DNA from: Bacillales bacterium
GTDB lineage: Bacteria > Bacillota_I > Bacilli_A > Izemoplasmatales > UBA1188
Direction of reading: 5' to 3'
Assembly: GCA_020633845.1 (NCBI GenBank)
Contig: JACKCW010000003.1
Location: 11,661-75,660 of the forward strand
DNA: 64,000 bases
Shown in pieces: positions 28,601 to 29,796 of the stretch; the first letter of the stretch is position 1, and each line of letters starts with the position of its first letter. The notes below the pieces were generated by a model. The model made no database searches and had not been told where the DNA came from. It saw nothing but the letters and a program-made list of their open reading frames with translations. Made by a program: the position numbers and the translations under genes.

Positions 28601-29325
28601 ATCCATATTTATACAAAGGCTATTATTACGACAGAGAAACTAATTTGTATTACTGCAACAGCAGATACTACAGTCCTTCTTTATGCAGATGGATATCGGC
28701 TGACGCAATAGACAATCTTGATCAATCAACGATTGATGGAATAAATCTATACGCGTATTGTGGTAATAACCCAGTAATGGGATATGATCCAGAAGGAAAA
28801 TGGAATTGGAAAAAATTCGCCATTGCACTTGCTGTATCTATTGTTATAGTGGCGGTTACTGTGGCTATAGTTGTTGCAACCACCGCAACTGGTGGACTTG
28901 CAATGCTTATTATTGGGGCTGCAGTTACCACTGGTGTAGTTTTGTCTTACGCAGCAGGCGCAGAAAAAACAGTGGTCATAGATTTAAGTTGTTATTTATG
29001 GGATGTTGGCGGAGGAAATTCTCTGGTCATTGATTTTAAAAATGATTCATGCGAACTATACTCTCATGGTGGGTTTGTGATGGGAGATAGTCCCATGGCT
29101 ATTTCTTTCTCTGTCGGACTTGTTGATAATTATAAAGGAAAACGCGGATACGAAGGACCATTTATGAAGATTGGAGGAGGATATAAAATTGGAATTGAAC
29201 ACGCTTTTGATCCGACTAAACCATATGATGAAACCGTTAGAGCTACAACAGTAACTTTTTCAAATTCTTTTGGAGTATACGCAGGATTTGATTATTATAC
29301 TAGTTTATTTTATTTTAATTTCTAG
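22618..29325 (+). CDS. Rhs/YD-repeat polymorphic toxin (2235 aa) with a variable C-terminal toxin domain
   Basis: Many YD repeats (YDASGRL, YGYDTNGY, YEYDDDRQ, YDDNGN, YSYDEIGRL, YTYDQNGN). Rhs core end YNPYLYKGYYYDRETNLYYCNSRYYSPSLCRWISADA...NLYAYCGNNPVMGYDPEGK (DPEG at 28786-28797). No signal peptide, LXG, WXG or PAAR-like N-terminus is visible. Confidence 0.9.
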   Translation: MIQKITNNTINPGITIVDSKIYGTNGTLYSYSSSGHYYSGFNSTKLMFIKLTFNILSSSDIQRSYLNLKYSGVHNSTMLRIYDTNQTATTSAALLSVISNYSNTAYFDDAVIIDESTMTDGYGRASFDITNIIRSKATSTTFSVVLMIASDYSSATELKLYDPVYDTDDVCVTTLSAIDGLSSNYQYQESDAGFAGKTYVNLATGKMLLNFAGPSSKDTKMPLAFGFTYNSNRYQLSYDLGNGAKSFFNYKIYQSGSSLIVQDPSGYDNVFTPIDDEEAENLDIDTSNQSCDYYYSYETGSHIAYNSSTSLLRLYDKNENLMSFYYNTIVTRLMSISNKLGKTTDYNWDILNGNPPESIENSVGEIMSLVYDSSDRVVTATCNSIILTFAYDASGRLSSVIENNGSTNLYTATYGYDTNGYMNDIHDSYSDTGISFTYTGGKVTRIDYYKNSTTESAGYKVIAYNDNFTSVANEKGEINYYYFNENGKCIMVMDDKGKTISFNYDEIKNGLSSNLSGQSHVQHNSRNLIENNSFESNDDLFGDDSCWTISGASSTTAETVDDGVYGQKSLKVSHAAGETITISQNLHNVYEGTYILKGFLKRYTQASAITSSNIKIKLIGSYDITESVPVTTTQSDGTTVTTYVNQTNHCDNLSVENASFSGDSNWVAFSLPALSFPTASFNNTLNITIQLIGNTYDVYFDELQLNSKDMSARYNYVENGYMEYGSVLPTGFAMNSVGLLDSIYTLTSSDEHASILGKKVMRLYETCAYTQTSGTINSKKFYREIPIKGIEGEELVFSIFAKALATENNIFRAYIIFNYVGQSAVSTYRFDFIKDFSNWQMLTKSITAEHSYDGIILGVEYAGKSNAYIDAFQLYKDNYGKYYSYDKKGNLINTVDGASSSSFSYNDLNEIESASLSDGSYYRYEYDDDRQITGVYDSNGNHLVMEYDDNGNRTSVQLFDVNGKALNVSSAYNSYSKALSYTNELNETTTYSFDAKGLLQTTTDPTGQVERNSYDSYDRLICLDSFHGGNAPTNAENQYSYNSLNQLASISSNNGTTYGFVYDDFGRITEINIDGARYQSKEYNLSHGTPSVNTGLLTMKRYGTSGDYYAFTYDDNDRIATVLLNGNQIAAYEYDENGQISKSTDSVNDNTRNFSYDLKGNLKKSTDSDGNSISYFYDNLGAVQKTIYEINEKNRTFDYQYTYEENEYSKEGYFERLSTVYGDEIIKGNMLGKGTYGATPDEDIPSSMVYTDDVIKMSVYKFSTADNKIEYELSKFNNDRDGIYYNSTQFNYNVWKSNFANEKTFYAWIKPMGSFSEECIFQFADITNQTTYCSLVVNSTGHLGLKPYNSSSMALTSSALTIGVYNLVGVQFIKSSSSITARLIVNGNVTEFSTTIDPSNFGYLKVADQREYNYSSLLPMYIYIAFMSAGSYPYTADDFQAIYKAGAPYLSSIINRESKTSGVLYYNKTPYESFDIITLNGSFVSSKGLEPKTIVETDNSYKVDKAKLFKYDLTLKKHIYGSYSSVVNLTPGNNSKLVYDLGLGASGTISIRYRFDASASQDTYPKMLFSFINGSTTHLYAEYQSSTGFKIYDNAGHSTVIPFDTGVWHTLSLSYNSSGTLLYQDLTSISNSLSINLTGCEAYIGSGSSDNTQMDGDMEMLVFGNSKATATQLQAFYSGRKSYSVLKTHDLLDRITKKEIIKNSATASHTTTTYYTHGDTTTAIHPLVHSEETTTKEQNVSTTEVTIYSYDSLNNVTSKLVTDANGVGKERVDYSYDEIGRLSEEDTYTYVSGTGLVLTYKFKYTYDQNGNITYRKKYSSTDSLLATKSYVYDQTIKDRLASVTDGNTTTTITYGTGFAFNPTYIGSTPLAWSGRRLTGYGSNLFVYNEDGIRIRKTSVGFATHTYDLEGKRVVGETIDSPSIHFDYNYDEEGTLIGLTYNGIEYFYLRDITGNIVKIVDESGNTVVKYSYDAWGTVTKTNIANTTASGILYTYNPYLYKGYYYDRETNLYYCNSRYYSPSLCRWISADAIDNLDQSTIDGINLYAYCGNNPVMGYDPEGKWNWKKFAIALAVSIVIVAVTVAIVVATTATGGLAMLIIGAAVTTGVVLSYAAGAEKTVVIDLSCYLWDVGGGNSLVIDFKNDSCELYSHGGFVMGDSPMAISFSVGLVDNYKGKRGYEGPFMKIGGGYKIGIEHAFDPTKPYDETVRATTVTFSNSFGVYAGFDYYTSLFYFNF
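28499..28803 (+). repeat. rhs core 3' homology block (recombination substrate), master copy
   Basis: Nucleotide-level similarity to 32348-32626 over the full block and to 30984-31186 over its 3' two-thirds. Similarity ends at the DPxG codons. Confidence 0.8.
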
Positions 29326-29334
29326 GGAGGATAT

Positions 29335-29796
29335 ATGGATTTTGCCTATCATGATTATTATTTGAATATGTATATAATGCCAATTATAGTATTTATAATA
29401 ATCACTATCGGCGTAACTACAACGCTCTTTAATGTGATTAATGCTGCAAAGAGTCCACTGCCAAAATGGCTGACTATTTCATTCTGCCTATTTATTGCTA
29501 GTTTTCTTTTTATACAAGCATTTTCACAGTTTAGATTTGGGTATTATTTGCATGAAGAAACTCCGGAAAATGCAATTGTAACTGAAGGAGTAATAGAAAA
29601 AATAAAAGAAGATAAATTATCTGCCAGATATTTTTATGATGGGAAACCGACTAAATCAAGTATTATTACAATATCCGGAAAGGATTATTATTTCATGATG
29701 TTAGGCAATCTAGAAATAGGTGATGAGGTATCTATAACCTATTTGCCGAAAAGCACTATAGTTCTTTCGGTTACAATCAAAAATAGTAGTGAATAA
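29335..29796 (+). CDS. putative cognate immunity protein (membrane protein)
   Basis: Sits 9 nt downstream of rhs with a GGAGG RBS. Two or three TM helices plus a small soluble domain. The position is typical of rhsI. Confidence 0.6.
   Translation: MDFAYHDYYLNMYIMPIIVFIIITIGVTTTLFNVINAAKSPLPKWLTISFCLFIASFLFIQAFSQFRFGYYLHEETPENAIVTEGVIEKIKEDKLSARYFYDGKPTKSSIITISGKDYYFMMLGNLEIGDEVSITYLPKSTIVLSVTIKNSSE

Follow-up and report, generated by a model that had tools for sequence, protein, structure and literature searches.

Tse5, a type VI secretion system (T6SS) Rhs effector of Pseudomonas aeruginosa, is among the closest described relatives in design of the locus analysed here; its cage delivers an encapsulated, hydrophobic, pore-forming C-terminal tip (PMC10684867). 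Among pre-toxin domains, PT-TG as described by Zhang et al. stands before diverse toxins, and PT-HINT is sandwiched in front of the nuclease (PMC3113570). In Tde1, a T6SS DNase effector of Agrobacterium, an N-terminal glycine zipper is needed for translocation across the cytoplasmic membrane of the target (PMC10240207). The present work concerns a polymorphic Rhs toxin locus of a reduced-genome gut bacterium, which lies in a 64,000-nucleotide stretch of contig JACKCW010000003.1 (the window, by which we mean that whole stretch; 36% G+C) and comprises a main rhs gene, its immunity gene and two downstream orphan cassettes. In all three cassettes the C-terminal toxic tip downstream of the Rhs core (CT) begins with hydrophobic helices right behind the DPxG motif at which the protein is predicted to cut itself. 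The explanation that in our judgement best accounts for the whole, and which we regard as somewhat probable, is that this post-cleavage hairpin leader would insert the released toxin into the target membrane. The observation itself is solid, and the delivery role is well motivated by the sequence comparisons below.

As in Tse5 (PMC10684867, PMC9637101), an Rhs cage would hold a hydrophobic, helix-forming CT, the same aspartyl autoproteolysis would release it, and it would enter the target membrane. However, the T6SS injects Tse5 into the periplasm of diderm target cells, and the entire CT of Tse5 forms the pore, whereas at our locus there is no T6SS or type VII secretion system (T7SS), the producer comes from a clade without penicillin-binding proteins that is presumably wall-less, and the helices lead into a separate folded domain in two of the three cassettes. 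A profile search of the PDB gave no sequence relationship of the CT to Tse5-CT beyond the core. The Tde1 glycine zipper is likewise a short hydrophobic, GxxxG-bearing segment attached to a toxin, but both it and the prePAAR/transmembrane domains of T6SS Rhs effectors are located at the effector N-terminus and need adaptors or chaperones; the segment described here directly follows the Rhs cleavage site, and its chaperone would be the cage. As with PT-TG, PT-VENN and PT-HINT, the helical module of orphan cassette 1 is placed between the trafficking/repeat part and the toxin, with PT-HINT in between, and it shares with PT-TG a conserved TG after its second helix (LTGING). PT-TG is not described as membrane-spanning in the literature searched, in contrast to the module here, which is strongly hydrophobic with a transmembrane (TM) hairpin. 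Nor did we find in that literature a description of a pre-toxin domain with a TM hairpin located at the Rhs cut, which does not prove that none exists. The finding makes it testable how wall-less and Gram-positive bacteria get their toxins past the cytoplasmic membrane of the target without a syringe.

Hydrophobic leaders behind the predicted cleavage site

The main gene encodes RHS/YD repeats (RHS_repeat, Pfam E 4.1e-34) and a Rhs-associated core (TIGR03696, E 6.9e-20, aa 1971–2060) that ends in DPxG, together with a weak DUF6531 match (E 2.3e-4, under the Pfam cut-off); orphan 1 also matches TIGR03696. With a variable CT, a cognate immunity gene next to it and orphan CT-immunity cassettes downstream, the locus has the layout of an Rhs/YD-repeat polymorphic toxin. 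The features of the main cassette are as follows.

22618–29325 (+): main rhs gene, 2235 aa, with RHS repeats, Rhs-associated core and weak DUF6531
28786–28800 (+): DPEGK, end of the Rhs-associated core, where the TIGR03696 match ends, and putative autoproteolysis site (cut after K, by the WapA precedent)
28801–28818 (+): WNWKKF, aromatic/basic cap at the predicted new N-terminus
28807–28890 (+): hydrophobic hairpin helix 1, CT residues 8–35 (Kyte-Doolittle 3.09; AlphaFold2 helix)
28897–28959 (+): hydrophobic hairpin helix 2, CT residues 38–58, linked to helix 1 by an uncharged TGG turn (hydropathy, AlphaFold2)
28969–29319 (+): conserved beta-barrel toxin domain, CT residues 62–178, predicted Vap-like fold (AlphaFold2, fold search, family alignment)
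29335–29796 (+): cognate immunity protein, 153 aa, two N-terminal TM helices and a C-terminal domain of ~85 aa (hydropathy; homologues in loci L025 and L026 of other genomes)

The main gene carries the autoproteolysis motif residues RWISAD...GYDPEG, and its junction reads ...GYDPEGK-WNWKKFAIALAVSIVIVAVTVAIVVATTATGGLAMLIIGAAVTTGVVL... The junction of orphan 1 reads ...DPDGE-WDWGTFWEGVGLVATAVVAIALAVTTFGAGIPIAMAVIAGITLGAGIL..., and that of orphan 2 reads ...DPYGEKWWY, with a TAG stop at 32642–32644 and then VVGGVVIAAAIVAAIL... in the same frame; the junction peptides quoted in the initial annotation are exact against the sequence. Edman sequencing of S. suis WapA put the cut after DPSGH (DPSGH-IWK, the hyphen marking the cut), one residue past DPSG (PMC12704120). 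By analogy, the freed fragments would begin at W in the main gene and orphan 1, and at K-W-W in orphan 2.

With Kyte-Doolittle averages over 19-residue windows and a threshold of at least 1.6, the hydrophobic segments stand out clearly. Across all 2235 residues of the main protein such windows are confined to aa 2063–2115, with a maximum of 3.09, and hydropathy over the full length therefore gives no signal peptide or N-terminal TM segment. In orphan 1 they cover aa 78–129, and in orphan 2 CT residues 1–29. AlphaFold2 models the main CT with long helices at residues 8–35 and 38–58. The earlier statement that the three CTs start alike thus holds for the hydrophobic helices, found right after DPxG in all three, and has to be narrowed for the W-x-W motif, as orphan 2 has WWY in its place and is a pseudogene. 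The same annotation described the helices as a Gly/Ala zipper, a good fit for orphan 2, which has 18 GxxxG and 17 [GAS]xxx[GAS]xxx[GAS] motifs, and a modest one for the main CT, with 3 and 5 of these, and for orphan 1, with 3 of each.

At the nucleotide level, identity between the main gene and orphan 1 extends from the conserved core through the W-x-W codons and ends after them. Recombination carry-over of W-x-W was considered as an explanation and cannot account for the helices because the DNA identity stops before them; the W-x-W cap may partly ride on a recombination junction, while the helices do not.

Conservation of the leader among Rhs relatives

Relatives were fetched with the core only (aa 1800–2056), such that the sample is blind to the sequence that follows it. 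Of 120 relatives, 93 full-length proteins with a recognisable DPxG were counted and 27 were missed by the first motif pattern. A TM-like segment lies within 66 residues of DPxG in 86 of the 93, and W-x-W is seen in 11. Most of the 27 missed proteins have variant motifs, again with a hydrophobic stretch next when a looser core pattern is used. Loose clustering gives 24 of 27 CT clusters with a TM-like start, where 27 is a rough lower bound, since all-against-all BLAST over-merged 49 CTs via their Gly-rich helices. Aromatic residues pile up after the cut, with F or W at position +1 in 37 of 79 distinct starts and W at +3 in 23 of 79. CTs of the clade that bear an AHH nuclease or TNT likewise begin with TM helices. 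From one locus there emerges a rule in which about nine in ten toxin tips of this Rhs clade begin with membrane helices at the cut site. The same division into a leader and a toxin could be applied to hundreds of Rhs tips annotated as "hypothetical" in metagenomes.

Two more orphan Rhs-CT cassettes are located elsewhere in the genome (contig C1:149077–151222, minus strand). The first, which is frameshifted, has a TM start without W-x-W; in the second, a DTEG motif is followed by a soluble CT with no TM segment. Rhs tips in genomes of the same order mostly have a hydrophobic start, and a few are clearly soluble. The TM-start rule is consequently strong but not absolute, given the second of these cassettes and the few soluble tips of the order. 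Beside the two cassettes (C1:151269–153500, minus strand) are two paralogous genes whose products have an N-terminal TM segment and a J-domain-like C-terminal end (...EEAYRKLLVTEHPDRGG...).

The leaders can also be aligned with each other. An hhalign comparison of the main-type and orphan-1-type leaders (first ~60 residues) gives 94.6% probability and E 7e-8 over 43 columns, while reversed controls give 2–3%. The alignment pairs the cap, helix 1, the Gly turn, helix 2 and a T-G. These observations suggest that the hairpin leader is a modular pre-toxin domain and not a by-product of composition.

The main tip combines the hairpin with a predicted Vap-like barrel

The main tip (179 aa) has 135 cluster representatives at E ≤1e-3. 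The AlphaFold2 model built from 62 sequences has a predicted local distance difference test (pLDDT) of 92.5 and a predicted template-modelling score (pTM) of 0.85, and consists of the hairpin (8–35/38–58) and an all-beta domain (62–178). The latter, of ~117 residues, is modelled as a compact, small closed barrel. In a Foldseek search of the PDB with the beta domain, the only geometrically sensible matches are VapD, VapB and VapG of Rhodococcus equi, with E-values of 1.1e-3 to 2e-2, probabilities of 0.97–1.0, target template-modelling scores (TM-scores) of 0.51–0.61 and 7–10% identity over 112–121 columns. Vap proteins form closed barrels of eight strands, with a surface rich in Gly (PMC4089522, PMC4118825). 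As in VapA, VapB, VapD and VapG, the model of the main beta domain is a small, closed antiparallel barrel rich in Gly; unlike the Vap proteins, this domain is fused to a TM hairpin, would be Rhs-delivered and has conserved polar residues of its own (D66, D83, Y92, H94). The Vap family is not among the 25 most-matched of the 34 Pfam families listed for the 62 main-CT family members, and the relationship between barrel and Vap proteins may be convergent. VapA and VapN bind and permeabilise liposomes (PMC10100859), and because some Vap proteins do so, a membrane-directed action of the main beta domain is plausible. We also flag a second new family, a toxin with a predicted Vap-like barrel and a dedicated 2-TM immunity protein.

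The initial annotation had read the aromatic C-terminus as resembling an outer-membrane protein (OMP) and as hinting at a pore-forming beta structure, a reading that is not supported. GFP-like and OMP barrels score TM-scores of at most 0.2, with OprF at rank 41 and 0.17, and OMP_b-brl has a weak match in one of the 62 members (E 7.9e-4). Of 65 members, only 27 end in an aromatic residue, the clade is without penicillin-binding proteins (PBPs), and an outer membrane is not expected in a Mollicutes-like clade. A PDB sequence search with the main-family profile returned Rhs and Tc cores only, with Tse5 matched in its Rhs core region only (E 0.031). Within the family the conserved positions are D66, S68, G77, S79, D83, Y92, H94, G96, S109, G111, Y116, Y122, F126, G136, P143, D169 and Y171, and by their conservation these barrel residues could mark a binding or catalytic site. 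Ntox25 (PF15530) is seen below threshold in 3 of the 62 members, where the alignment covers the initial strands of the beta domain (best in member P0120, E 0.025, 14.9 bits versus a cut-off of 25), while the CT of the window itself gives no match; these alignments may be a distant link to a toxin domain of proteobacterial/Bacteroidetes contact-dependent inhibition (CDI) systems.

The number of TM helices in front of the barrel varies within the family, with about two in 36 members, one in 18, three in 4 and none in 7. W-x-W goes with the two-helix forms, being present in 19 of 36 versus 3 of 18 one-helix forms (Fisher p = 0.018), and the hydrophobic helix of the one-helix forms starts at the cut itself. 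With either layout the barrel would stay on the side of arrival, the outer side: a hairpin would keep its capped N-terminus outside, and a single helix would push the bare N-terminus through. In L025 and L026, CTs of the same family are immediately followed by homologues of the 2-TM immunity protein (39% and 26% identity). That the main immunity protein is membrane-embedded, as proposed earlier, is thus supported by its two TM helices and by its conservation beside the same CT family elsewhere.

Orphan cassette 1 carries a helical pre-toxin module

The features of this cassette are as follows.

30968–31765 (+): orphan cassette 1, with core remnant, DPDGE (31175–31189), pre-toxin helical module and toxin tail
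31190–31549 (+): predicted pre-toxin membrane module, CT residues 6–125, with WDWGTF cap, TM hairpin around TFGAGIP, LTGINGIA, EAGADYNFVRDG and three more helices
31550–31762 (+): putative toxin tail, a small beta-rich domain
31780–32238 (+): immunity protein, soluble, DUF4275, 152 aa (Pfam E 1.8e-15)

The orphan-1 CT has 236 homologues, and its module is present in gut metagenome-assembled genomes labelled Bacilli, Clostridia, Christensenella, Mollicutes, Anaeroplasmataceae, Acholeplasmataceae and Erysipelotrichaceae. The homologues share a conserved block of about 115–120 residues that runs from the cap through helix 1, TFGAGIP, helix 2, LTGINGxA, EAGTDYNFVRDG and a helix with AYNxY to a further hydrophobic helix. 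The block is constant and its C-terminal end is swapped: it precedes the tail seen here, TNT (PF14021), an FTKHG..HGVS tail or two other tails, and it also precedes PT-HINT, which is followed by LHH, Tox-GHH, AHH, Tox-REase-9, Ntox21, Ntox24 or a colicin-E3-like domain. In most loci of other genomes the identity is 48–75% in the block and 44–53% in the tail. The AlphaFold2 model of the orphan-1 CT (49 sequences, pLDDT 93.2) shows helices at 8–31, 38–67, 71–80, 85–110 and 113–125 and a small beta tail at 136–195. A fold search of this CT against the PDB gave no match (best E 0.8), and no Pfam or NCBIfam model matches the block. The module is a defined domain of ~120 residues whose fold is predicted confidently and which no Pfam model covers. 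Across all CTs and immunity proteins, the Pfam and NCBIfam searches gave only DUF4275 and weak noise.

PT-TG (PF14449) was tried as an identity for the leader and rejected: it has no match on any CT at E ≤1 nor in the six-frame translated genome at E ≤10, while the B. subtilis control matches. PF14449 is also absent among the Pfam families listed for the orphan-1 homologues shown.

DUF4275 homologues stand after orphan-1-type CTs in at least five other genomes. As the immunity protein is soluble and the partner enzymes act in the cytoplasm, the orphan-1 helices would deliver rather than kill. The leader of orphan 1 would accordingly be a delivery module, and of the two roles put forward in the initial annotation, self-translocation and direct membrane damage, comparison indicates that self-delivery fits this cassette better, and direct damage less well.

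A strongly hydrophobic open reading frame of 95 aa (30141–30428, minus strand) with a weak DUF975 match (E 0.005), located between the main operon and orphan 1, may be a stray immunity gene.

Genomic setting

The assembly comprises 683 kb in five contigs and is 69.5% complete, and in it we found neither a PBP transpeptidase (PF00905) nor a WXG100 gene. A PBP is present in 1 of 14 high-quality genomes of the same genus, family and order, and the clade is, from its gene content, presumably wall-less and Mollicutes-like. The region upstream of rhs contains two nucleotidyltransferase genes, a sigma factor gene and a weak match to a holin. In L025 (1201–11238), where a related Rhs protein carries a CT of this family, the genes stand in the order seen in the window: small genes, among them a weak match to a holin, then a pair of nucleotidyltransferase genes, rhs and the gene for a 2-TM immunity protein. 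Since no injection or export machinery was found, the toxin would have to cross or attack a bare membrane unaided. A giant toxin without a signal peptide, possibly holin-released and facing wall-less or monoderm rivals, would need a route into the bare membrane, which makes sense of the leader. As a separate observation, Rhs cores occur in 13 of 21 genomes (that of the window and 20 relatives).

Proposed mechanism and alternative explanations

In the mechanism that we propose, the Rhs aspartyl protease would cut one residue past DPxG, and because the cut falls there, the freed CT would begin exactly at the aromatic cap (W-x-W-x-x-F). The cap would be followed by the hydrophobic, Gly/Ala-rich helical hairpin with its short uncharged turn, shielded while the toxin is inside the Rhs cage. 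Upon release at the target, the hairpin would insert spontaneously into the cytoplasmic membrane, with the Trp cap staying at the interface. In the main gene, it would tether the Vap-like barrel, as the toxic entity, to the outer face of the target membrane, and the 2-TM immunity protein would protect the producer by neutralising the barrel. In orphan 1, the hairpin would be part of a five-helix domain of ~120 aa that serves as entry module for a cytoplasm-acting tail neutralised by DUF4275, and in relatives with PT-HINT, HINT would free the enzyme after passage. The immunity proteins appear to mirror the proposed sites of action, being 2-TM with the main CT family and soluble (DUF4275) with the orphan-1 tail. 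That the released fragment carries its own membrane-insertion module, as the initial annotation suggested, is borne out by comparison, in that the module is conserved, mobile and placed before enzymes that would act in the cytoplasm (TNT, HINT-released nucleases). A more far-reaching version, which we put forward tentatively and consider rather doubtful, is that the W-x-W hairpin domain may be an autonomous translocation device, carrying any fused enzyme across a bare bilayer with no receptor or injection machine and with PT-HINT providing release on the far side. Such a device would be akin to the diphtheria-toxin T domain or the colicin hairpin and, if real, would explain target entry by the polymorphic toxins of monoderm and wall-less bacteria.

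Several points weigh against target-membrane insertion by the leader. The TM status of the leaders is read from hydropathy and AlphaFold2 helices, and the likeness to Vap is at fold level only (E 1e-3, target TM-score 0.6, 7–10% identity), with the function of Vap proteins itself poorly understood. About 10% of main-family members are without a TM leader, such that the barrel can apparently work without one. For orphan 1, the passage of a cytoplasm-acting tail is left unexplained, as a hairpin inserted from outside leaves its cargo outside. The orphan-1 module was found behind Rhs cores only, with no LXG or other trafficking carriers in a search limited by shared words and length, and this equally fits a role inside the cage. 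Finally, the holin match has E 2e-4 and 22.1 bits versus a Pfam cut-off of 24.9, and with a genome that is 69.5% complete, the missing secretion genes are weak evidence.

There are three other explanations of the leader. It is conceivable that the helices themselves are the toxin in all three cassettes, forming a pore or acting as an ionophore like Tse5-CT, the CDI ionophore toxins, TelE and EsxX, with the downstream parts accessory. There is precedent for such toxins (PMC10684867, PMC11630599, PMC12744356), the TM segments are Gly/Ala-rich, with 18 GxxxG in orphan 2, the immunity proteins of the main gene and orphan 2 are membrane-embedded, and many CTs of the clade are almost wholly hydrophobic and Gly-rich. 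However, the orphan-1 immunity protein is soluble and conserved with the tail, the same leader precedes bona fide enzymes and PT-HINT, and in the main family it is the barrel that is invariant, while the TM helices are missing from ~10% of members; we therefore consider helices as the toxin unlikely. Alternatively, the leader could act inside the producer's Rhs cage, as packaging or as a plug that touches the inside of the cage and prevents the toxin from folding, and do nothing at the target membrane. This would account for a module that was found behind Rhs cores only and starts exactly at the cleavage site, and for nucleotide homology with the core that includes the W-x-W codons; a part for a pre-toxin region in encapsulation was proposed in the S. 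suis study (PMC12704120).

Yet leaders of zero to three helices within one CT family are odd for a fixed contact with the cage, and uncharged hairpin turns and Trp caps are classic features of the membrane interface. It is general knowledge, moreover, that diderm Rhs and Tc toxins package soluble CTs without such helices, and taken together this makes an in-cage role quite improbable. Action on the producer side, where the helices, as a tail-anchor or export signal, would take the cage to the producer membrane for holin-linked release or surface display, is in keeping with the missing signal peptide of the main protein and with the holin-like gene and sigma factor in the same island. A cleaved CT is expected inside a closed cage, however, with its helices unexposed, and the type of immunity protein, soluble or membrane-embedded, tracks the type of toxin, pointing to action at the target; we regard a producer-side role as very improbable.

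Orphan cassette 2 is an inactivated glycine-zipper cassette

The features of this cassette are as follows.

32346–32644 (+): core remnant, frameshifted, with DPYGE (32615–32629), KWWY and in-frame TAG (32642–32644)
32645–33229 (+): orphan-2 CT, 194 aa, with an N-terminal hydrophobic helix and 18 GxxxG (glycine-zipper type)
33214–33633 (+): candidate immunity protein, 139 aa, a multi-TM membrane protein

With its core frameshifted and a TAG four codons past DPYGE, orphan 2 is a dead copy of a glycine-zipper CT, by analogy probably of the membrane-depolarising type. The continuation is similar to regions rich in Gly in many other tips, in some cases located in front of PT-HINT. Judged by features alone, the orphan-2 CT is like the glycine-zipper depolarising toxins TelE, EsxX and TspA of Bacillota and like the CDI ionophores, being rich in Gly zippers and accompanied by a multi-TM immunity candidate (PMC12744356, PMC11630599); those toxins differ in being T7SS/LXG- or CdiA-delivered, whereas orphan 2 is an Rhs-linked pseudogene. 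A stop a few codons past DxxG that is followed by an intact TM-rich frame is also seen in the orphans of two relatives, L036 and L049 (DSTGYMA, stop, AAAVGG... and DSTGYFIV, stop, VMIAS...). Such a recurrent early stop could silence the orphan, or the hydrophobic frame could be expressed alone, in orphan 2 from a TTG start at 32717 that would give 170 aa.

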